This document shows positions 3,408 through 37,588 of a stretch of 64,000 nt of DNA, piece by piece; position 1 is the stretch's first letter; every line of letters starts with the position of its first letter. Origin of the DNA: an uncultured Armatimonadales bacterium (GTDB lineage: Bacteria; Armatimonadota; Armatimonadia; Armatimonadales; Capsulimonadaceae). A model generated the notes under the pieces. That model was not told where the DNA came from. It worked only from the letters and a program-made list of their open reading frames with translations, and searched no databases. The position numbers and the translations under genes are program-made. The stretch is from positions 5,133 to 69,132 of the forward strand of contig CAXSZN010000013.1 of assembly GCA_964241935.1 (NCBI GenBank). The letters run 5' to 3'.

Positions 3408-6400
3408 TTCTGGGCGGTGACAGCCTGCGCGGCTGTCCGGGCACGCTTTGGGCGGGACGGGCGGCTGATCAGCGGCGCGGCAGGATTGCCGTGGGTGACC
3501 TGGTTCCGGCCCGATTCTTTGGAACAATACAGCGCTTTATCCGCACACGCGGTCATTGACTCCGGATTTGGCGTATCCAGCGAGAGGGTGCAGACGCCGA
3601 GGCTCACCGTCACCGGACGCAGGTCCCAGTCTCCTCCGGCAATCGCTCCCCGAAGACGCTCGGCAATGACCAGCGCCCCGGCTTCGTCTGTTTGAGGCAG
3701 GACGATGACAAATTCCTCGCCGCCGTACCGGGCCGCGACATCCGTATCGCGGGCGGCGTGTTCCAGGGTCTGCGCGACTTGGCGCAGCACGGCATCGCCC
3801 GCCGGGTGGCCGAACGTGTCGTTGTACTGTTTGAAGTGGTCTACATCCAGCAGCAGCAGGGACAGCGGCTGATGGTAGCGCACCGCGCGGGCATGTTCCT
3901 CCGCCAGCTTCTCGCCAAAAATCCGGCGGTTCTTCAGGCCGGTCAGGCCATCGGTAGTCGCCAGCTCTTCCAGCGCTTTGTTGGTGTTCTCCAGCTGGCT
4001 TTTCTGGAACTCTAAAACAACCGTGTAGTCTTTGATCTGCTGCTCCGCCTGCTTACGCTCGGTCAGATCGTGCCAGACGGAGAGCAGGACCGGCTTATCG
4101 CCGAGCATCACTTTCGTTAATGTCACGGCGACCGGGATTTCAGCGCCGTCCAGGGCCAGGCGTACCCATTCAAAGTGATGAGTGCCGTTTTGCCGGGCCA
4201 GCGCACACATTTCATCGCCCTTCTCGCGGGACCCCCGCCCGTCCGGCTGGCGCTCCGGGGACAGCCGCGCCGGATGCACTCCCAGCAGCCGCGCCTTGTC
4301 GGTGCAGCGCATCATCGCCAGCGCCGCCGCGTTGCAGTCAATAATGCCGTCCTCATCAAACAGCAGATGCGCGTCGGAAGACTGCTCGAACAGCACCCGG
4401 AACCGCTCTTCCGACTGGGCACGCTCGGTGACGTCAAAACAAACTCCGATGATCCCCGTAACCGCCCCGGACGCATCGCGCTGCGGCTTGAGTTCGACAT
4501 GCAGGCACAGCGCCTCGCGGCGCAGATCATAGGAGACCGTCTCGCCTGCAAGGGCGCGGCGGGAGCAAGCATCCACGGCAGGATCGCCGCCGCTGAACTC
4601 AAAAATCGACCGGCCCACCGCTTCGCCCGGCGCAAGGCCGAGCGCCGAAAGACCGCTGCCTTCGGAAAGCGTAATCACGCCGTTTCTATCGGCGGCGTAC
4701 AGGATCACCGGAGCGCTGCCCAGCATGGCCCGCAGCGCTTCCTCGCTGCGTCGCAGCGCATCTTCCATACGCTTGCGCTCGGTGATGTCGCGCACGGCGG
4801 TCACACGCGCGGGCAGGCCGTTCCAGACAGCAGTGCGCCCGCGAACCTCCATCTGGAACGTGCTGCTGTCCCGGCGCTGCCCAACAGCCTCGTAGGCAGA
4901 CTCTTCGCCCTCGGTGACTTTTTGCGTGACCAAAGCCTGCGATTCGGGAGCCGCCAAATCTTTGCCGGCCATTCCAACGATTTCTTCTCGGGCTTGGTAG
5001 CCATACAAAGACAGAAACGCCGGGTTTGCGTCCAAAATAACGCCGTTCTGGCTGACCGCGATGCCTTCAAACGCCGCATCCGAGAAGTAGCGCAGCCGGG
5101 CTTCGCTTTCCCGCAATGCGTCCTCCGCCTTCCGCCGGGCCGTGATGTCCCGCGAGATGCAGGACAGTCCGACGACCTCTCCCTGAGCGTCATGGAGCGG
5201 CGAGAACGTCAGCGCGAGGTTCAGGACCGCACCGCCCTGCTGATGCCGCACGACTTCCACCGGTTTCAGAGGCTCCCCGTTCAGCAAACGGGCAATCATG
5301 GTGTCCACCACGCCTTTCTGCCCGTTCGGAACGAGAACATCAGCGTGATGTCCAACTACCTCCGTCTCAGCGTAGCCGTAGAGGCGATTAGCGCCGGCGT
5401 TCCAGCTTACAATCGTGCCGTCCAGAGTCATTGCCAGGATTGCTTCTTCCGACGATTGAACAATGGCCGCCAGCCGTGACAGCTCCCTTTCAATCCGGCG
5501 GCGGGCCGTAATATCGTACATGGCCGCCACCGCACCGAGCTTCTGGCCGGTGCGGCTGTAAATCGCCTGACCGGAGGCAAGCAGGGTGCGGGCAGGAGAA
5601 TCGCCTGGCGCGATGACCATTTCGGCGTCTCGCACTACCTCGCCGCTGAAAGCTCGAAAAAGAGGGATCTCTTCCGTTGCAAGCGGCGTCATGCCGTCTG
5701 CGTGATACAAGTCGAAGTGCTCCGCCCACTGCTCCGGCGGCAGCGGCTCTTCGGACATGCCATGAAACTCACGGGCGGCTCGATTAAACAAAGTCAGCTT
5801 CCCGTGCGCGTCGCAGGCGACAATCCCGGACTGCAGGCTTTCCAGCATCGCCGATTGGAAGTCACGCTCCATTTGCAGTTGTTCTTCAATCTTCTTTTTC
5901 GCCGTGATGTCCGTAAATGTCAAGACAGCAGCGTAAGCAGCCTCCTGACCGATGCGAAACACCGGGGCGGCTGTCACTGCCAGCCAAACCACTTCCATGC
6001 CGGGCCGGCGGATGCCCAGTACGACTACTTCCTGGGGACAGGCAGTTTCCAGAGCCAGGCGGCCGGGATGCTGGTGAGACGGCAGGTCATCTCCATTTTC
6101 CCGCAGGAGCTGCCAGTCTTGACGCAGCAGCGGCTGCCCGACCAGGCTTTGGAGACCGGCCGGGCCAGTGCCTAAAATCCGCTCCGCCCCGGCATTGCCG
6201 AGCAGAACAACGCCGTCCCAATCTACGACGATGTACCCTTCCTGCATGGCATTGATGGACTGGGCAAATAGGTTCCGGCTGTCCTGAGACGCGGCCAGCG
6301 CCTGACGCATCTCGCCTTCCGCCGCCCGCAGCCGGAGCAGCAGCAGGCTGGAAGCGGCCAGCGAGCAGAGCAGCCCGGCCAAGCCGAGGCGCAGCAGCGT

Positions 6401-31034: not shown

Positions 31035-32048
31035 TTAATCGCTTACGGTATCCGGCTTCTTGACCCAGGACATCAGGCCGCGAAGCTGCTTGCCGACGGC
31101 CTCAAGCTGCGACGCGCTATCCAGCGCTGCCAGGGCATTGAACATTGGGCGATTGGCCTTGTTTTCCAAAATCCAGTCGCGGGCGAACTGCCCGGTCTGG
31201 ATTTCTTTGAGAATCTTGACCATCTCGGCTTTCGTGGCATCGTTGACAATGCGCGGGCCGCGCGTCATGTCCCCGTACTGGGCGGTGTCCGAGATCGAGT
31301 AGCGCATTCCTGCAATGCCGGCCTCGTACAGCAAATCCACAATTAGCTTCAGCTCATGCAGGCACTCAAAATAGGCAATCTCCGGCTGATAGCCGGCATT
31401 GACCAGGGTTTCAAAACCGGCCTTGACCAGCGCCGTCGTGCCGCCGCACAGGACCACCTGCTCGCCGAACAAGTCCGTTTCGGTTTCTTCCTTGAACGTC
31501 GTCTCTAGTACCCCCGCCCGGCTGCCGCCGATGCCTTTGGCCCACGCCAGCGCGATATTCTTGGCGTTCCCTGTAGCGTCCTGCGCGACCGCGATCAAGC
31601 ACGGGACACCTTTGCCTTCAGTATACGTCCGGCGGACCAGATGCCCCGGCCCTTTCGGCGCGGTCATAAACACGTCCACGCCGTCTTTGAGCGGAATTTG
31701 CCCAAAGTGGATATTGAAGCCGTGGCCGAACGCCAGCGCGTTGCCGGGTTCTAAATTGGGCGCGATGCTTTCCTTGTAGACATCGCCCTGAAACTCATCG
31801 TTGATAAGCATCATCACCACATCCGCTTCTTTCGCAGCTTCTTCGACCGACTTCACCGTAAGCCCCACTTCCTCCGCCTGCGCCCAGCGCTTCGAGCCGG
31901 GCCGCAGCCCCACGCGCACATCCATCCCGCTGTCCCGCAGGTTCAGCGCATGGGCGTGACCCTGCGAGCCGTACCCAATCACGGCAAGCTTCTTGCCCTC
32001 TAAAAACCCCAAATCGGCATCAGTGTCGTAATAAACCTTCGCGGCCAT
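31035..32048 (-). CDS. ilvC: ketol-acid reductoisomerase
   Basis: [20 protein letters not shown].. and a class I KARI length of 337 aa. Confidence 0.9.
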
Positions 32049-32075: not shown

Positions 32076-32783
32076 TTAATCTAAATCAAGAACTTCCCAA
32101 TCTAGGGAAAAGAGTTGCGCTGTTTCCCGCAACACCTCTTGGCTGCGTGCGCCTATCCAAATCCACCGATAGCCGTCTTCTGAGGCTTCAGTCTCGATTA
32201 GAACATCATTGCCACCGTAGAGACGTGAGATAGAAACAGGCCAGTGCCATTCAGGAAAACCGAGCAGCACGAAATTTTGTTCTACTATTGTCAGTGTATC
32301 GCTGTTCGCCGAAGAATTGTCGCCAAACTTTCCACCAAAGCAAGCAGTTTCTAAAATGACCATTTGCGTGATAAACTCGGAGAGCGTCTGGTTCTCAATT
32401 GTGCCGGTCTCATCAAGATATACAGGCGGGTCATCCAGATTGAGATCACTTACGAGTACGCCCCAGTTCACGACTGCCTGGTTTTCTGTGTAGAAGCATA
32501 AAACCCTTGCGCCGTCTTCCTCTTGGGTGTACAAGCGATCCGGTGAGCGCAGGAAGTTCTGAGCGGCTGTTATATCTTTGCGCTTGCCGGCAAGCTGATA
32601 CCATTCCCGCAAAGCAAGCGGCAGCTTCAGCCCAAGCCGTTTCTCCGCCGCATCGAGTTCCGCCGCTGAGTAGCCGTCGCCTGGCTTTAAGGGACTGTGC
32701 CACTCGGCGATGAAGTCTTGGAGTAGCGACCAGCGATCTTTGCGAGTAGACAGCCGGTCGGCGAACTCGTGCGGGTTGAACAT
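32076..32783 (-). CDS. SMI1/KNR4 (SUKH-1) family protein, immunity-protein-like
   Basis: ELDAAEKRLGLKLPLALREWYQLAGKR is the classic SMI1/KNR4 N-terminal signature. Composition is AT-richer. Confidence 0.7.
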   Translation of the reverse strand: MFNPHEFADRLSTRKDRWSLLQDFIAEWHSPLKPGDGYSAAELDAAEKRLGLKLPLALREWYQLAGKRKDITAAQNFLRSPDRLYTQEEDGARVLCFYTENQAVVNWGVLVSDLNLDDPPVYLDETGTIENQTLSEFITQMVILETACFGGKFGDNSSANSDTLTIVEQNFVLLGFPEWHWPVSISRLYGGNDVLIETEASEDGYRWIWIGARSQEVLRETAQLFSLDWEVLDLD

Positions 32784-32795
32784 GGCGAACGGCTC

Positions 32796-33056
32796 CTAAT
32801 CGCCGGGCAGGTTCGGCACCAGCAGAACCTTTAAATGTTTCTCAGCTTCAATGTCTTCTGCCACTTGTTCCATGAGGTCGCGGTAGTCACGCAGGCGGAT
32901 GTCCGGCGGCTCAGGAGTGACGACTACATACCACCAGTCGCCTTCATGCTGCGCTCCGAGACGGGAAACATTCAAGCGATAGTCTTTTGGCTGATGCCGG
33001 TCAACATATTCCTCAACAATGTTCAATGTCTCGTTCATAGTTTCCGTTTCGCTCAT
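32796..33056 (-). CDS. small acidic hypothetical protein (86 aa)
   Basis: Start chosen at MSETETMNE. It overlaps the HEPN gene 3' end by 44 nt. I recognised no domain. Confidence 0.5.
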   Translation of the reverse strand: MSETETMNETLNIVEEYVDRHQPKDYRLNVSRLGAQHEGDWWYVVVTPEPPDIRLRDYRDLMEQVAEDIEAEKHLKVLLVPNLPGD

Positions 33057-33435
33057 ACAGGCACCCCAGGTAGTTGAAAATCTTTTTCGCCGCAAGGTAT
33101 GAGTCCCGACAGCTTTGTTTGTCAACGCGGATCAGCGAGTAGTCGGCGGCAAGGCGATCTAAATATAACGCCGTAACAAGCGCCGTCAGGTTGTTCAGAC
33201 GACCCGCGCTCATGTGCATAAAGTAGGCACGGTTCAGCCGGGGCAGTTCATTATGTCCGGGTGTGTTGCGGCCATCACGGAAAGCCGGCCTTGCACCGCG
33301 CCGGATTAGCTCATATGTCAGCACTGAGAACGCCGCGTAGTAAAACCGGCTTGTCGCGTTCCGGTCATAGCCGCCGTCGTATAGCGTAACTGCCGCCCGA
33401 AAGTTGTCAGCGCCGATCTCCTGCCACGTTGCCAC
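33013..33435 (-). CDS. HEPN domain protein (Rx4H motif present)
   Basis: AGGAGG, 5 nt, then GTG at 33435. SRFYYAAFSVL, RNTPGH (Rx4H) and DRLAADY match the canonical HEPN (PF05168-type) pattern. Confidence 0.7.
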   Translation of the reverse strand: MATWQEIGADNFRAAVTLYDGGYDRNATSRFYYAAFSVLTYELIRRGARPAFRDGRNTPGHNELPRLNRAYFMHMSAGRLNNLTALVTALYLDRLAADYSLIRVDKQSCRDSYLAAKKIFNYLGCLYERNGNYERDIEHC

Positions 33436-33757
33436 TGTCTCCTCCTTGAACGCCCCCTTGAGGCATCTGCTTCCGGGCCGTGTAAACGCCCGCGCCGATG
33501 CCTGCGGCAATGCCAATCAGCACAAACAAGCCCAAGTTGACCAGCAGGTTCTTGACGGTGTCTAAACCCAGATGGTCTGTGATGGCGTTGTAGACGGTCC
33601 AAAGCGCATAATTGCCGACGCCCGCAGCGATGCCGATTGCCAACCCAAGCGGCAGGCGCTTGGCGGCGTACCCCCAGGCCAGGCCAATCAGCGGAGCGAG
33701 TATCAGAACGCACAGCATGAGCAGGTGCGCTTGGTGCGGGTCAATCAGCTCTTTCAT
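33407..33757 (-). CDS. small integral membrane protein (about 3 TM segments)
   Basis: 116 aa with hydrophobic segments LLMLCVLILAPLIGLAWGY, LAIGIAAGVGNYALW and LGLFVLIGIAAGIGAGVY. The ATG lies 3 nt after the ilvN stop, and the 3' end overlaps the HEPN start. Confidence 0.6.
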   Translation of the reverse strand: MKELIDPHQAHLLMLCVLILAPLIGLAWGYAAKRLPLGLAIGIAAGVGNYALWTVYNAITDHLGLDTVKNLLVNLGLFVLIGIAAGIGAGVYTARKQMPQGGVQGGDSGNVAGDRR

Positions 33758-33760
33758 CGG

Positions 33761-34264
33761 CTAAATCCCGCGAACGCCCCGCGCCATGGCGATCCGCCCG
33801 GTGCGGACCAGCTCCCGGATGCCGTAAGGCTCCAGCAGCTTTTCGAACGCATCTATTTTGTCGTTCGCGCCGGTCAGCTCAATCACAAATGTTTTCTCGG
33901 ACATATCAATCACCCGGCCCCGAAACACTTCGACAAGCTGCAAAAGCGCCGTTCGGTTCTCGACCAAAGCATTGACTTTAATCAACGCCAGCTCGCGGGC
34001 GATAATCGGGATATTAATATAGTCCTGGACTTTAGACACTTCAATCAGCTTATGCAACTGCTTGGTGATCTGCTCCACTTCCCCCTCGTCACCGTTGACC
34101 ACCAAAGTCATGCGCGACAATTCCGGGTTCTCGGTGATCGAAACCGCGAGAGACTCGATATTGTAGCCCCGGCGCGAGAACAGCCCGGACACGCGCGAAA
34201 GCACGCCCGGCTTGTTGTCCACTAAAACTGTGATTGTATGCTGCTGGCCTGAAATCTGCTGCAA
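33761..34264 (-). CDS. ilvN: acetolactate synthase small (regulatory) subunit
   Basis: HTITVLVDNKPGVLSRVSGLFSRRGYNIESL, an ACT domain, 167 aa. Confidence 0.9.
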   Translation of the reverse strand: MQQISGQQHTITVLVDNKPGVLSRVSGLFSRRGYNIESLAVSITENPELSRMTLVVNGDEGEVEQITKQLHKLIEVSKVQDYINIPIIARELALIKVNALVENRTALLQLVEVFRGRVIDMSEKTFVIELTGANDKIDAFEKLLEPYGIRELVRTGRIAMARGVRGI

Positions 34265-34278
34265 AGCGCCTTTGCTCC

Positions 34279-34641
34279 TTAACTGTTGCCTGGAACGGGC
34301 AAACCCAGAATGCTGGCGATGCCTTGCTCCACTTGCGAGAAATCCTTGTCGGTCATTTTGCCAAGCACACGCTCGACATCACGCTGATCTACCATTCCCA
34401 GGTAGCCGCGAACTGCGGAGGGCTTGAGTAATCCGGCAGTCTGCCATTCTCCCAAAGTCGTATCCCCTGGACGAAACGGTGCATTCAAATTGCTGGTGAT
34501 CGCCGCGACGACAATTTTAATGCCTGATCTATTGAATGCTTCCGTGCTGAGAACCACGGCAGGACGCTTCTTGCCGCCGGGTCCATCCGTAAAAGGCATC
34601 TCGACTAAGAGAATATCGCCGCGCTGGTAATACTGCCTCAT
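34279..34641 (-). CDS. mazF: MazF/PemK family type II toxin (endoribonuclease)
   Basis: RGDILLVEMPF..KKRPAVVLS..VVAAITSN is a PemK-like fold signature. It overlaps the upstream antitoxin gene by 4 nt. Confidence 0.75.
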   Translation of the reverse strand: MRQYYQRGDILLVEMPFTDGPGGKKRPAVVLSTEAFNRSGIKIVVAAITSNLNAPFRPGDTTLGEWQTAGLLKPSAVRGYLGMVDQRDVERVLGKMTDKDFSQVEQGIASILGLPVPGNS

Positions 34642-34871
34642 AGGTTATCGTACACCGCGTCAGAATCGTTATCCCAAATTTCCCAAAGTGAGCGGTACGA
34701 AAGAGCCTGCCAATCTGCCAGCAGTGCGTGCTCCACGTCTTCTTCACGCTGCCGAGCGGAGAAAGCTTCCAGCGCGAGCGTTGCAACCAGCTCTCGTTCT
34801 TGCCCGCGCTTCTGCGCTTCTTCTTCCAGCCATGCCTCCGTTTCCGGCGAAATGTCAATCGTCATTGTCAT
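34638..34871 (-). CDS. type II antitoxin partner of MazF
   Basis: 77-aa acidic protein immediately upstream of, and overlapping, mazF. The assignment is positional. Confidence 0.6.
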   Translation of the reverse strand: MTMTIDISPETEAWLEEEAQKRGQERELVATLALEAFSARQREEDVEHALLADWQALSYRSLWEIWDNDSDAVYDNL

Positions 34872-35015
34872 GGTTTACCTCAAAAGTTGCGGTCATAGCT
34901 ACATCAGTTTGTTTATACAGCGCAGTACCTCATCACGGTTCTTGGCAATCTTCATCCACTTCGGCAAGTACCGAGCTAGGCCCGTGTTCGGGTAAGAGCA
35001 TTCATCTCGCAAATC

Positions 35016-35049
35016 CGCTTCAATGTAACGCTTCAATGTAACGCTTCAA
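35016..35049. repeat. 13-bp tandem duplication (cgcttcaatgtaa x2 plus a partial third unit)
   Basis: Units at 35016-35028 and 35029-35041, with a partial unit at 35042-35049. The length is not a multiple of 3. Confidence 0.9.
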
Positions 35050-35391
35050 GTACGCCAAGTGAGGCCGATTGTAGGCCCATAAAGTTTCACCGCAGCAAGG
35101 CATCTGAAACCAGAGTGGCAGGTTGAAATACCAGTCCGTAGGACTACCGTAGGCATATCCATCTGTCTTAAGGTCTTTGATGTGACCACAGTGGCGGCAA
35201 ATCAGACGCGCGTAGCAAATCACGCCATGTAAACGATACGGCCCGGATGCCTCCCGCTGGGAGAAGTTATGGGCAAACTTAGGCTCAATCTTGCGAACGG
35301 TAGCACAACTGCTGCAAACAGGGCAGCGGACGAAGAACACATCGGCAAAGGTGTGGAGATGCTCCCCCATGTTTTGGAACTGGGTCGTCAT
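35020..35391 (-). CDS. zinc-ribbon (CxxC..CxxC) hypothetical protein, apparently truncated by a 13-bp tandem duplication
   Basis: CPVCSSC and CRHCGH pairs. Deleting one 13-nt repeat unit extends the frame 38 codons to a TAG at 34901-34899. Confidence 0.55.
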   Translation of the reverse strand: MTTQFQNMGEHLHTFADVFFVRCPVCSSCATVRKIEPKFAHNFSQREASGPYRLHGVICYARLICRHCGHIKDLKTDGYAYGSPTDWYFNLPLWFQMPCCGETLWAYNRPHLAYLKRYIEALH

Positions 35392-35414: not shown

Positions 35415-37220
35415 CTACCCCAGCGCTTCCTGGCCGGCGTAGGCGGGGATGCGCTCGGTTTTTTCGTCTTCATGGGCGGGGCGGGTGTCTTCGTCGTCCA
35501 TGTAAACTTCGCTCGCCATGTAGCTGTCGAGCGGGACCATGCCTTCGGGGCGGGAGACGACCATTTGGGAGATGGTGCCGCCGCTTGGGATCATGGGGTA
35601 GACGTTTTCTTCTTTGGCAATGCGGAAGTCAATCACGGTTGGGCGGTCGGTGATGGACATGGCTTCTTCTAAAGTCGCCCGCACGGCGGACGGCTGGGAG
35701 CAGCGGATGCCGTGGGCGCCGTAAGCTTCGGCGAGCTTCAGGAAGTCCGGGGACGCCTCTAAATCCACGCTGGAATAGTGCGAGTCCCAGAACAATTCCT
35801 GCCACTGGCGGACCATGCCGAGGTAAGTGTTGTTTAAGATGCAGATTTTAATCGGCAATTTGTAGATGGTCGCCACCATCAGCTCCTGAATGCACATCTG
35901 GATCGAGCCGTCGCCGGAAACGCAGAAGACCGGCGTGTCCGGCGAGCCGAACTGTGCGCCGATGGACGCCGGCAGGCCGAAGCCCATCGTGCCGAGGCCG
36001 CCGGAAGTCACAAACTGGCGCGGACGCAGGCACTTGTAGAACTGGGCCGCCCACATCTGGTGCTGGCCGACATCGGTCACGACAATGCCGTTGTGGTCGG
36101 CCACTTCCCCGATCTGCTCGATCACATACTGGCCGTGCAGGATACCGTCGGCGGGATAATGCAGCGGAAAGTCAGCCTTCCACTGCTGGACCCGCGCCAC
36201 CCACTCCGGGTGCTTTTTCGCGTCAACCACTTTCAGCAGCTCGGTTAAAACCGCTTTGACATCGCCGACAATTGGCACATCAGCGGGCAGAACTTTGCCG
36301 ATCTCGGCGGGGTCTACGTCAATATGAATAATTTTGGCGCTTGGCACCCACGAGTCCACTTTGCCGGTCACGCGGTCATCAAAGCGGGCGCCGACCGCGA
36401 TCAGCAAATCGCACTCGGAAACGGCGTAGTTGGAGTAGGCCGTACCGTGCATTCCGAGCATTCCCAGTGACAGGGCGTGAGTTTCCGGGAACGCGCCCAG
36501 CCCTTTGAGCGTAGTCGCGACCGGAATATCGGTCATCTCGGCTAAAGCCCGAATCTCTTCGTAAGCGCCCGAATAGATCGCGCCGCCGCCGACGTATAAC
36601 AGAGGCCGCTCGGCTTCGCCCATCAGCTCCGCCGCCCTCTGGATCTGGCGCGAATGGCCTTTCACCGTCGGCTTGAAGCTGGGGATGGAGACTTCTTCGA
36701 CGGGCGTGTAGTCAAACTCAGCCCGCAGAATGTCCTGCGGGATGTCCACCAGCACCGGGCCGGGCCGTCCTGAGCGGGCGATATGGAACGCTTCAGCAAT
36801 AATGCCGGGCAGCTTCTCAACATCTTTGATCAGCCAGTTATGCTTGGTGATCGGCATGGTAATGCCTGTAATGTCGGCTTCCTGGAATGCATCCGTGCCG
36901 ATCAAGTTCGTCTTGACCTGCCCCGTAATGGCGACAATCGGAACCGAGTCCATCATGGCGTCGGCAATCGGCGTCACTAAATTGGTCGCACCCGGCCCGG
37001 AAGTCGCCAGACAGACACCGACTTTGCCGGTCGCCAGCGCGTAGCCTTCGGCCATGTGGCCTGCGCCCTGCTCATGGCGAACTAAGATGTGCCGGATGTC
37101 CGGGAACTGGTACAGCGTGTCATACAGCGGGATGACGGCCCCGCCGGGATAGCCAAAAATCGTATCAACGCCTTCGCGCTTGAGGCATTCTAAGAGTGCG
37201 CGGCTGCCGGTCATTTTCAT
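35415..37220 (-). CDS. ilvB: acetolactate synthase large (catalytic) subunit
   Basis: MKMTGSRALLECLKREGVDTIFGYPGGAV.. and the ThDP motif GGLGTMGFGLPA. Start at 37220 or 37214. Confidence 0.9.
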   Translation of the reverse strand: MKMTGSRALLECLKREGVDTIFGYPGGAVIPLYDTLYQFPDIRHILVRHEQGAGHMAEGYALATGKVGVCLATSGPGATNLVTPIADAMMDSVPIVAITGQVKTNLIGTDAFQEADITGITMPITKHNWLIKDVEKLPGIIAEAFHIARSGRPGPVLVDIPQDILRAEFDYTPVEEVSIPSFKPTVKGHSRQIQRAAELMGEAERPLLYVGGGAIYSGAYEEIRALAEMTDIPVATTLKGLGAFPETHALSLGMLGMHGTAYSNYAVSECDLLIAVGARFDDRVTGKVDSWVPSAKIIHIDVDPAEIGKVLPADVPIVGDVKAVLTELLKVVDAKKHPEWVARVQQWKADFPLHYPADGILHGQYVIEQIGEVADHNGIVVTDVGQHQMWAAQFYKCLRPRQFVTSGGLGTMGFGLPASIGAQFGSPDTPVFCVSGDGSIQMCIQELMVATIYKLPIKICILNNTYLGMVRQWQELFWDSHYSSVDLEASPDFLKLAEAYGAHGIRCSQPSAVRATLEEAMSITDRPTVIDFRIAKEENVYPMIPSGGTISQMVVSRPEGMVPLDSYMASEVYMDDEDTRPAHEDEKTERIPAYAGQEALG

Positions 37221-37254
37221 TGTCAAGTCCTTCCAGTTACTTTTACCTTTAAAT

Positions 37255-37312
37255 TCAAAAAAGCCTCTCGTCACACAGTTGCCCGGAGGCAAGGGACGAG
37301 AGGCTCTTTTTG
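37255..37312 (-). terminator. intrinsic terminator of the T-box leader (attenuator)
   Basis: The minus strand reads AAAAAGAGCCUCUCGUC..(inner UUGCC/GGCAA stem)..GACGAGAGGCUUUUUU, about 40 nt before the ilvB start. Confidence 0.85.
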
Positions 37313-37553
37313 AAAAGCTTCACGCGGTACCACCCTTGTTCGGTTCAAGACCTCTTCGCTGAGGCGATAAACCGCACTTGGAGCGCGATTACGGGCGCGA
37401 ACCGGAGTATCTTAATATCTTACGAGTTCAGACACTCTGCTCAGAGGGGAGAGAGCGAAACGCTTGCTGCCGTCTCGCACCAGGCGACGGCTCTCTGAAA
37501 GTAAACCTGTTCGGACATTGTCCTCGTCAATGCAGTTAGATTATTTTGTTGTG
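37255..37553 (-). promoter_or_regulatory. T-box riboswitch leader of the ilv-leu operon, probably Leu-specific
   Basis: The conserved T-box sequence AACAAGGGTGGTACCGCG lies at plus 37323-37335 (cgcggtaccaccc). AGAGAG and GGTGCGA stem-I-type motifs are present. An alternative antiterminator is possible, with AAGAGGUCUU pairing AAGAGCCUCU of the terminator 5' arm. The candidate specifier is GAA-CUC-G. Confidence 0.85.
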
Positions 37554-37559
37554 CCGCGA

Positions 37560-37588
37560 ATTATACCTGTATTCAAGCAGGGTGTCAA
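37560..37588 (-). promoter_or_regulatory. consensus sigma-70 promoter of the ilv-leu operon
   Basis: The minus strand reads TTGACA (37588-37583), a 17-nt spacer, then TATAAT (37565-37560). Confidence 0.8.

Follow-up and report, generated by a model that had tools for sequence, protein, structure and literature searches.

HEPN RNases are major toxins in toxin–antitoxin (TA), abortive infection (Abi) and CRISPR-associated systems, and they are known to be neutralised by MNT enzymes, by RnlB/LsoB/Dmd-type binders, or by RNAs. MNT proteins neutralise their HEPN by AMPylation, and genes of the AF0298 type are classically linked to MNT genes. In RnlA-RnlB and LsoA-LsoB, the gene for a HEPN RNase toxin comes first, and the second gene encodes a small protein antitoxin that is not an enzyme and works by binding the toxin directly. 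Most type II antitoxins carry a DNA-binding domain. In HEPN-MNT pairs, the MNT gene lies 5′ (PMC3710099). An alternative, strongly conserved His from the insert between helices 2 and 3 has been described for AF0298 and AbiV (PMC3710099), and the AbiV antitoxin has been reported to be an RNA (10.1101/2024.05.05.592566).

We analyzed a HEPN-encoding cassette within a 64,000-nt stretch of DNA (the window). Its HEPN resembles that of HEPN-MNT systems (HepT-MntA, type VII) in being a small, stand-alone, predicted toxin of the nucleotidyltransferase-associated clade (PF05168), in keeping the conserved Tyr near the end of helix 3 (here Y99), and in belonging to a two-gene module with overlapping ORFs. 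The locus differs from these systems in three respects: (i) the partner is a protein other than an MNT, lacking NTase matches in Pfam as well as G[SG]/DxD motifs and having an α-β-β-α-β topology; (ii) the gene order is reversed, with the HEPN gene 5′ and the partner gene 3′; and (iii) the canonical Rx4-6H His is missing. The adjacent MNT gene by which a type VII TA system is recognized is likewise missing. The AF0298-like HEPN-T protein (2hsb) is the best structural match and also combines a missing canonical His with an alternative His from the helix 2-3 insert, although by sequence no PDB chain was matched significantly here. AbiV shares the alternative His and the toxin-first order with a neutralizer encoded downstream, but the antitoxin of AbiV is reportedly an RNA, whereas the putative antitoxin here is a conserved protein. 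The order of a HEPN gene and then a small protein gene is also that of RnlA-RnlB and LsoA-LsoB; in contrast, RnlA and LsoA are large and multidomain, and no similarity in sequence or fold was detected between the partner and RnlB, LsoB, or Dmd. Finally, the cassette includes a protein that matches PF09346 like the SUKH proteins of polymorphic toxin systems, but no polymorphic toxin gene is adjacent.

Layout of the locus within the ilv operon

The cassette is located between ilvN and ilvC, within an ilvB…ilvC operon that is headed by a T-box; the genome is that of a Capsulimonadaceae-like member of the Armatimonadota. All four ORFs of the original prediction were recovered on the minus strand at unchanged coordinates. 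The features considered here are as follows:

37289-37588, minus strand: upstream control region (promoter and T-box leader before ilvB)
33407-33757, minus strand: 3-TM protein, 116 aa, a neighbour outside the module
33013-33435 (ORF 33013-33516), minus strand: HEPN-fold protein, putative RNase toxin, 140 aa
33053-33075, minus strand: HEPN/small junction, from a DNA alignment with five relatives
32796-33056, minus strand: acidic α-β-β-α-β protein, putative cognate antitoxin, 86 aa, unannotated family
32076-32783, minus strand: SMI1/KNR4 (SUKH-1) immunity-type protein, 235 aa, a neighbour outside the module

As originally predicted, the start of the HEPN gene overlaps the 3′ end of the 3-TM gene (by 29 nt, from the coordinates), and the SUKH gene begins 12 nt after the small gene; its product scored 27.7 bits against PF09346, above the cut-off of 25.4, which places it in the SMI1/KNR4 family. 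Since all four genes have many homologues and are under purifying selection (dN/dS 0.05-0.28 against orthologues, with dS near saturation), they do not represent chance ORFs.

Seven ORFs of the ilvB-ilvC interval were scanned, comprising the four cassette genes, MazF, the 77-aa partner of MazF, and a Cys-rich ORF. None of the seven matched a nucleotidyltransferase family, which bears out the earlier observation that the HEPN has no MNT partner, and none matched the PADLOC-DB v2 HMMs. For the small, 3-TM, and SUKH proteins, nothing was found in NCBIfam, PHROGs, or PADLOC. We also noted that a MazEF-like pair is present in the same operon, upstream of the HEPN-small dyad. A repeat search around the cassette revealed no flanking integration repeats, attC-like sites, repeats, or hairpin arrays.

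Upstream of ilvB, a sigma-70 promoter consensus (12/12) was found at 37588-37560, followed by a T-box leader at 37539-37289 (89.9 bits, E 2.6e-20, just below the gathering score of 93). The genes follow one another closely; no convincing terminator was found between ilvB and ilvC, and no recognizable promoter belonging to the HEPN-small module was apparent, the candidate internal promoter at 33189-33162 being weak. Judged from this arrangement, the module would be co-transcribed with the ilv genes.

The HEPN protein and its small acidic partner

The HEPN gene starts with a GTG at 33435, preceded by the Shine-Dalgarno sequence AAGGAGGAG, and encodes 140 aa compared with 125-127 aa in most relatives; MATWQEIG is the N-terminus of its homologues. 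The difference in length lies at the other end, where the last ~14 residues are a frameshift-derived tail. Alignment with five relatives showed that their HEPN proteins end in YLGVPV and that the HEPN gene overlaps the small gene by only the 4 nt of an ATGA. The junction holds Shine-Dalgarno-like motifs (GGAGGTG/GGGGTG) and the ATGA stop-start overlap used by the relatives, but a 1-nt deletion in a G-run (plus-strand CCCC, 33064-33067) removes the usual stop and lengthens the HEPN frame by 13 codons. The 44-nt overlap given by the coordinates is thus due to this deletion and is an artefact of this lineage or of the assembly. It is real, as first described, but being peculiar to this sequence it does not speak for design.

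A total of 78 homologue clusters were found for the HEPN. The window protein itself scored 17.2 bits against PF05168, below the cut-off of 22, but 54 of 56 family members matched this profile (E<=0.01; best E 2.6e-10). The AF2 model (pLDDT 90.6) is a HEPN-like helical bundle with helices at residues 4-20, 24-45, 77-99, and 106-123 and an insert (46-76) between helices 2 and 3; only the tail (127-140) has low confidence. This four-helix up-down bundle with a helix 2-3 insert is the arrangement of the HEPN superfamily. In a Foldseek comparison of the model with the PDB, the best match was 2hsb, the AF0298 HEPN (prob 1.0), and the other leading matches were likewise HEPN proteins (2q00, 1ufb, 1wol, Csm6', AbiV RNase, and sacsin). 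Sequence searches of the PDB with the HEPN and small-protein profiles gave no significant match to any chain; the leads were a de novo designed protein (E 0.0035) and a "Retron-Kva2 HEPN" (E ~1).

The motifs SRFYYAAF, RNTPGH, and RLAADY, on which the HEPN assignment was originally based, are all present. RNTPGH, however, is not a canonical Rx4H: it spans residues 56-61 inside the helix 2-3 insert, and its R56 varies. The position at the end of helix 3 where Rx4-6H would be expected reads R94-L-A-A-D98-Y99, without His. Invariant residues of the family are R25, S29, Y32, Y33, H61, Y91, R94, D98, and Y99. By sequence and position, RNTPGH matches the 'alternative His' variant of AF0298-type HEPN. 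We are not aware of experiments demonstrating that HEPN proteins of the AF0298 type are RNases; for the protein described here, both RNase activity and toxicity are predicted.

The 86-aa protein starts with an ATG at 33056 and has a pI of 4.6. It belongs to a family of 357 clusters (50% identity, E<=1e-3), recognizable down to ~25-30% identity and including fused two- and three-domain versions. Median pI values differ markedly between the two proteins of the pair (9.5 for HEPN vs 4.7 for the partner family). According to its AF2 model (pLDDT 86.7), the small protein forms a single α-β-β-α-β domain. It matched no family in Pfam, NCBIfam, PADLOC, or PHROG, and Foldseek against PDB and BFVD gave no match at E <= 1e-3. 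The matches that were listed are generic two-layer α/β folds (TM 0.45-0.63), namely KH-II/uS3, Era, BolA, CDF C-terminal domains, and one phage NTase-domain protein. An NTase family was matched by none of 75 partner-family members. A degenerate MNT was considered and rejected, as neither topology nor motifs fit and G[SG]/DxD is missing. No HTH, RHH, or AbrB-type DNA-binding family was detected in the partner, so the feature associated with autoregulation by type II antitoxins is not seen.

Conservation, co-divergence, and decay of the pair

A gene of the small family directly follows HEPN in all 24 intact HEPN genes examined, and the partner gene is directly downstream of HEPN in 28 of the 33 copies seen. 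Within the ilv clade, the prevalence of the dyad is biased upward because most ilv-context loci were retrieved with HEPN or the partner as query. Outside the ilv context, six dyads (L020, L021, L023, L024, L025, and L027) lack the membrane protein, SUKH, and ilv genes. Among them are (i) a stand-alone dyad (L020); (ii) a dyad between rpoB and rpoC in a Phycisphaerales MAG (L021); and (iii) a dyad between a DUF1156 protein and a PLD-SNF2 helicase (L023). Another housekeeping setting of dyad copies is after argF. At least seven distinct genomic contexts were found. The predicted co-occurrence of the 86-aa family with HEPN is thereby confirmed, in six contexts beyond ilv, and the two genes show what is expected of a type II TA pair: they are adjacent, co-directional, coupled, conserved, and context-mobile.

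The two proteins also diverged together. In a mirror-tree analysis, the distance matrices of HEPN and partner were strongly correlated (r = 0.84, Mantel p <= 2e-4). Where pairs are arrayed in tandem (L002 and L004), the nearest relatives of a given HEPN are also those of the partner encoded just downstream of it, which defines three cognate pair types. Such cognate co-evolution, together with insulated paralogous pairs, is likewise characteristic of type II TA systems. The ilvN-ilvC slot of relatives holds between zero and three cognate pairs, of the three types.

Decay of the module was one-sided. Four HEPN genes are disrupted with the partner intact (three by in-frame stops, one by a frameshift), and five partner genes are orphans; an intact HEPN without partner was never seen. 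L028 and P0196 are deletion derivatives from which the HEPN gene was removed. Upstream of a distant partner gene (P0154), at a distance of 187 nt, lies an unannotated 185-aa gene. No relatives of the dyad were found on viral contigs or plasmids, and no description of it was found in the literature. By these comparisons, the HEPN gene and the small acidic gene are a toxin–antitoxin-like pair, conserved and co-evolving, whose partner family is undescribed.

The locus is probably best explained as a two-gene, toxin-first HEPN TA module with a new antitoxin family. The toxin would be a basic HEPN of the AF0298-like "HEPN-T" type, in which the invariant His61 of the helix 2-3 insert and three residues from the end of helix 3 (Arg94, Asp98, and Tyr99) make up the predicted RNase site. 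The small acidic α-β-β-α-β protein would be translationally coupled to HEPN, normally via the ATGA overlap, and would most likely neutralize it by binding to it directly, as type II antitoxins do, not by AMPylation. The original prediction of a new proteinaceous HEPN inhibitor is supported insofar as the acidic protein is a conserved and co-evolving partner; for the inhibitor role, it is the best candidate. The module lacks any recognizable promoter of its own and lies within host operons; in the present case, it occupies a variable slot of the T-box-controlled ilvB…ilvC operon, bounded by the 3-TM gene and ilvC.

Competing explanations and implications

A less likely reading, though one that retains some plausibility, is that the dyad serves mainly in anti-phage defence by abortive infection, the small protein being a sensor or guard that is removed by a phage trigger as in RnlAB/LsoAB or AbiV. 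The toxin-first order is that of rnlAB and abiV1/abiV2 (10.1101/2024.05.05.592566), AbiV is among the fold matches of the HEPN, the dyad between the DUF1156 protein and the PLD-SNF2 helicase has a restriction- or defence-like setting, and HEPN-T genes have been reported to cluster with R-M operons (PMC3710099). However, PADLOC and PHROG gave no matches, viral or plasmid copies were not found, and most copies reside in housekeeping operons (ilv, rpoBC, after argF) and not in defence islands. A role in defence is compatible with the TA module proposed above and does not exclude it.

It is rather improbable that the HEPN is catalytically inert or non-toxic and that the pair has a housekeeping or regulatory function tied to the host operons, for instance in binding RNA or nucleotides or in processing the mRNA of the operon. 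The missing canonical His, the embedding of the pair in essential or biosynthetic operons, and the finding that many HEPN-T domains are non-catalytic substrate-binding modules (PMC3710099) would agree with such a function, but the invariant polar residues H61, R94, D98, and Y99 point to a conserved active or ligand site. Moreover, copy number varies from zero to three across three paralogous cognate types, HEPN was repeatedly inactivated by nonsense mutations with the partner kept, and whole modules were lost. This pattern fits a selfish or toxic element and not a housekeeping one.

Originally, all four genes were proposed to act together, the membrane protein being a sensor or effector; SUKH would then be a second immunity component. 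The genes adjoin one another in the same direction, overlapping or separated by tiny gaps, and the order TM-HEPN-small-SUKH recurs in L001, L002, L007, L016, and L029, but all of these loci come from a single phylum and have the ilv synteny in common. The 3-TM family (346 homologue clusters) is not tied to HEPN as had been supposed: the protein is present in 17 of 18 complete ilvN-ilvC intervals, including L028, where HEPN and the small gene are lost, and is missing beside all six non-ilv dyads. Its 3′ tail is an out-of-frame translation of the 5′ end of HEPN, reaching 29 nt into that gene, and the overlap does not occur in L009, L018, L019, and L022. By distribution, it is a resident gene of the ilvN-ilvC interval, conserved in Armatimonadota, and stands outside the module; a membrane-sensor role was considered and rejected. 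SUKH occurs in only nine of the 18 complete intervals (fragmented in two of the nine), independently of HEPN copy number, and never adjoins a dyad outside the ilv context. GC content of its 3′ half is ~47%, compared with ~58-60% for ilvC and ilvB on either side. The SUKH gene lies between the small gene and ilvC, with no toxin-domain protein adjacent that could be a cognate polymorphic toxin, and it is best regarded as a separate, facultative orphan immunity gene. A single four-gene unit is largely refuted by these co-occurrence data and is now very doubtful.

Least credible is an RNA antitoxin (type III, AbiV/abiV2 style) with the 86-aa ORF incidental: although AbiV, which among relatives sharing this gene order is the closest to have been studied functionally, reportedly has one (10.1101/2024.05.05.592566), we rejected it because a dN/dS of 0.05-0.06 for the 86-aa gene, 357 clusters still recognizable at such low identity, and a confident fold identify the partner as a protein, and fused versions and the lack of repeats or hairpin arrays argue in the same direction.

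If the proposed TA module is correct, a widespread, unannotated family in strict partnership with one HEPN-T subfamily would constitute a new class of antitoxins and would offer a way into the AF0298-type "alternative-His" HEPN proteins, which are poorly understood. Its placement in a T-box ilv operon and between rpoB and rpoC raises the idea that TA modules may hitch-hike on the regulation of host operons, without an autoregulated promoter of their own. Possibly, though we regard this as speculative and rather unlikely, the HEPN-small dyad and the MazEF-like pair are both promoter-less TA cassettes that settle in essential or biosynthetic operons, their dosage being slaved to host-operon regulation (e.g. 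tRNA charging), and the ilvN-ilvC slot is a lineage-wide stacking site for insulated cognate pairs. If true, amino-acid starvation would be linked directly, in a hard-wired manner, to RNase-mediated growth control; the host operons concerned would be the T-box-controlled ilv-leu operon here and the rpoB/rpoC site in the Phycisphaerales MAG. Three insulated pair types at one site would also provide a natural system for toxin-antitoxin specificity.

Genes of the locus and their operon setting

The minus-strand locus is bounded by ilvN and ilvC. The following features were identified:

37588-37560, minus: sigma-70 promoter consensus upstream of ilvB (12/12, TTGACA-17-TATAAT)
37539-37289, minus: T-box leader (89.9 bits, E = 2.6e-20, just missing the Rfam gathering score of 93)
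35415-37292, minus: ilvB, head of the operon
35020-35391, minus: Cys-rich ORF, 123 aa, no family match
34638-34871, minus: acidic ORF upstream of MazF, 77 aa, overlapping the PemK/MazF gene by 4 nt
34279-34641, minus: PemK/MazF toxin gene (Pfam, 54 bits)
33761-34264, minus: ilvN, 5′ flank of the locus
33757-33407, minus: three-transmembrane (3-TM) protein, 116 aa
33435-33013, minus: HEPN protein, 140 aa; GTG start at 33435, behind AAGGAGGAG
33056-32796, minus: acidic small protein (the partner), 86 aa, pI 4.6
32783-32076, minus: SMI1/KNR4 (SUKH) protein, 235 aa (PF09346, 27.7 bits against a cut-off of 25.4)
31035-32048, minus: ilvC, 3′ flank of the locus

The operon order is ilvB, Cys-rich ORF, 77-aa ORF, PemK/MazF, ilvN, 3-TM, HEPN, small gene, SUKH, ilvC, a short-chain dehydrogenase gene, and leuA. 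The HEPN start is supported by homologs beginning MATWQEIG. Since a promoter and T-box precede ilvB and no terminator-like match across the ilv region was convincing (such matches were no commoner than in shuffled sequence), the whole ilvB to ilvC unit is likely co-transcribed under T-box control. A CUC aligned close to the specifier region of this T-box; as a candidate specifier, it would suggest control of the ilvB leader by tRNA-Leu. The Bacillus ilv-leu operon is under tRNA-Leu control. We also noted a second variable slot between ilvB and ilvN (34279-35391, minus), which holds the PemK/MazF gene and the 77-aa and Cys-rich ORFs, and in relatives carries PIN, EcsC, a glycosyltransferase, or other small genes instead of the MazF set.

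The original prediction described HEPN, its two neighbors and SUKH as a four-gene cassette with overlapping reading frames. Its spacing (overlaps of 29 and 44 nt and a gap of 12 nt) agrees with the coordinates, and the reported lack of a minimal nucleotidyltransferase (MNT), the usual HEPN antitoxin, was confirmed, as scanning seven ORFs between ilvB and ilvC gave no match to a nucleotidyltransferase family. All four genes are under purifying selection, with dN/dS against orthologs of 0.05-0.06 (small gene), 0.08-0.11 (HEPN), 0.15-0.22 (3-TM), and 0.07 (SUKH), figures that are approximate because dS is near saturation.

Co-occurrence of the four genes

Using HEPN, small-protein, and 3-TM homologs, 30 loci (25 independent) were gathered and annotated with purpose-built profiles. 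The relatives fetched from genome collections were Armatimonadota, mostly Capsulimonadaceae metagenome-assembled genomes (MAGs). Among 18 independent complete ilvN-ilvC intervals, 17 contained the 3-TM gene and nine SUKH (fragmented in two of the nine). HEPN-small pairs, intact or decayed, were found in 17 of the 18, a count inflated by sampling, as these genes served as the query for most loci; they numbered from zero to three per interval (two in L002, three in L004).

A small-family gene lay directly 3′ of every intact HEPN gene across all loci collected (24/24, leaving out the distant partner P0154). Six further contexts contained this dyad with no 3-TM, SUKH, or ilv gene in its vicinity. 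These comprise (i) another Armatimonadota MAG, where it stands alone (L020); (ii) a Phycisphaerales MAG (L021, JALWOY010000169.1, 4959-5966), where it sits between rpoB (end 4959) and rpoC (start ~5966); (iii) L023 (2601-3897), flanked by genes for a DUF1156 protein and a PLD-SNF2 helicase, a neighborhood that may be described as restriction- or defense-like; (iv) a position 3′ of an ornithine carbamoyltransferase gene (L024); (v) a short soil contig (L025); and (vi) a position 5′ of nifU, with the HEPN gene overlooked by the gene caller (L027). The partner in L023 is a 298-aa protein with three tandem small-domain repeats.

The 3-TM gene can outlive the dyad. In L028, a 4.2-Mb genome, ilvN-TM-ilvC is kept and HEPN, small gene, and SUKH are all absent; the first ~14 HEPN codons remain at this site (4270-4460), a deletion scar indicating secondary loss of the cassette. 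In the same type of search, the 3-TM family yielded 346 clusters versus 78 for HEPN. The C-terminal tail of the 3-TM protein over HEPN results from translation of the conserved HEPN 5′ end in another frame, and the overlap is absent in four loci (L009, L018, L019, and L022). Members of the 3-TM family (~105-118 aa) occur directly 3′ of ilvN across Armatimonadota; compared with Pfam, they matched no family, apart from a weak similarity to DUF2568 (E = 0.011).

Co-conservation with HEPN thus holds for the small gene and fails for the 3-TM gene, which stays in L028 without HEPN, and for SUKH (9/18). Together with the six contexts lacking both, this speaks against the four-gene cassette. We conclude that the functional unit is the HEPN-small dyad, that the 3-TM gene is an operon resident, and that SUKH, an orphan immunity-type gene, is independent and facultative. 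The GC content of SUKH is ~47% in its 3′ half versus ~58-60% in flanking ilvC and ilvB.

The HEPN protein and its partner

The AF2 model of HEPN (pLDDT 90.6) displays helices at 4-20, 24-45, 77-99, and 106-123; residues 46-76 form an insert with a short helix of its own (61-71). Its top PDB fold match was the AF0298 HEPN protein (2hsb, E = 2.9e-3, probability 1.0), with Csm6′ and the AbiV RNase among the further HEPN proteins ranked below it, and PF05168 was matched by 54 of 56 family members. All three motifs named in the original prediction (SRFYYAAF, RNTPGH, and RLAADY) occur in the sequence. RNTPGH had been read as a canonical Rx4H motif; the canonical Rx4-6H motif is located at the end of helix 3 (PMC3710099). 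Here, helix 3 ends in R94-LAAD-Y99 (R94, D98, and Y99 invariant) without a His, and RNTPGH occupies residues 56-61 of the helix 2-3 insert, so the canonical appearance is coincidental. Within it, H61 is invariant and R56 conserved in ~90% of sequences; the HEPN of L021, with Q at the R56-equivalent position, keeps the His. In its insert-derived H61 the protein resembles AF0298-like HEPN-T proteins and AbiV, where an alternative conserved His comes from the insert (PMC3710099). The predicted site is likely formed by H61 with R94, D98, and Y99. Residues 19-73 (33217-33381; RSAxSRFYYAAF...H..lP.L) resemble the 'Retron-Kva2' HEPN subunit (PDB 36ht_I) at a non-significant E of ~1, perhaps a sign that both belong to one HEPN subtype that retrons use as an effector.

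The partner was modeled as α(3-20)-β(27-38)-β(41-49)-α(55-73)-β(76-81) (pLDDT 86.7). Searches of PDB and BFVD gave no significant neighbor (best were generic KH-II, BolA, and CDF-C-terminal-like two-layer folds, E ≥ 0.011), and no Pfam family was common to its members. Across this diverse family, E66 is the only nearly invariant polar residue, the others (V46, L79, and P81) being non-polar, which favors a role in binding over an enzymatic one and speaks against an MNT. Sub-threshold matches to Pfam Imm35 (PF15567, immunity protein 35) were seen for the partner P0132 and one member of the family alignment (E = 2.9e-4 and 8e-3), and a remote link to polymorphic-toxin immunity proteins is possible. 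The partner is a protein, as supported by its low dN/dS, the 357 clusters of its family (50% identity, E ≤ 1e-3), the confidence of its AF2 fold, and the existence of fused two- to three-domain forms (two domains in P0105, P0132, P0147, P0151, and P0154). HEPN RNases work as dimers, and the fused forms would fit this.

Besides pairing and folds, the dyad displays co-evolution, charge complementarity, and an asymmetric decay pattern. Distance matrices of HEPN and partner were correlated over 23 pairs (r = 0.84, Mantel p ≤ 2e-4); within tandem arrays, the closest relatives from other genomes agree between a given HEPN and the partner that follows it. Three cognate pair types (a, b, and c) were distinguished, with the window carrying type c. 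Median pI was 9.5 for HEPN versus 4.7 for partners. In four cases HEPN was disrupted and the partner intact (L008, L010, and L017 have in-frame stops, and the second L001 copy is frameshifted), and five partner genes were orphans; no intact HEPN without a partner occurred among the loci collected. P0196 and L028 are deletion derivatives with HEPN removed. In P0196, the HEPN N-terminus is fused to the small-protein domain.

The HEPN-partner junction and a possible mechanism

In relatives, HEPN ends in YLGVPV-TGA, overlapping the partner ATG as ATGA, and a GGAGGTG Shine-Dalgarno sequence sits within the HEPN 3′ end. Alignment of the junction with five relatives showed that the window is one G short in a G-run (CTGG-GGTG versus CTGGGGGTG or CTGGAGGTG; plus-strand CCCC at 33064-33067). 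This deletion shifts the last three HEPN codons and abolishes the usual stop, so that the reading frame extends into the partner gene by another 13 codons; the extra tail is modeled with low confidence. Either a recent mutation or an assembly homopolymer error is responsible. In both cases the 44-nt overlap, though present, is not a design feature as had been proposed. A weak promoter-like match (CTGACG-16-TATATT, 9/12) lies inside HEPN at 33162-33189 (minus), ~105 nt 5′ of the small gene start; it may serve as an internal promoter for the antitoxin, although chance matches of such quality are common.

We propose that the basic HEPN protein would act as an AF0298-type RNase toxin in dimeric form and that the acidic partner, made from the same mRNA by coupled translation, would bind it and mask the H61/R94 cleft. 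Loss of the partner by proteolysis, dilution, or a phage trigger would then free the RNase. In its toxin-first order and proposed non-enzymatic protein neutralizer, the dyad resembles RnlAB and LsoAB. Toxin-first order is also seen for AbiV, a close structural relative whose neutralizer was reported to be an RNA (10.1101/2024.05.05.592566). Assignment to HEPN-MNT (type VII) systems was rejected, as the dyad differs from them in lacking an MNT and the canonical His and in its reversed gene order. PADLOC gave no match to the dyad, and the literature searched did not describe it. It is best classed as a probable HEPN-toxin toxin-antitoxin (TA) module whose putative antitoxin family is new and unannotated.

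It is conceivable, if rather unlikely, that such dyads are TA cassettes without a promoter of their own, their dosage being dictated by T-box or host-operon regulation. The partner family of HEPN is apparently undescribed and its comparative evidence clean; as a concept, it extends well-known TA biology. The dyad is unusual in settling inside core operons.
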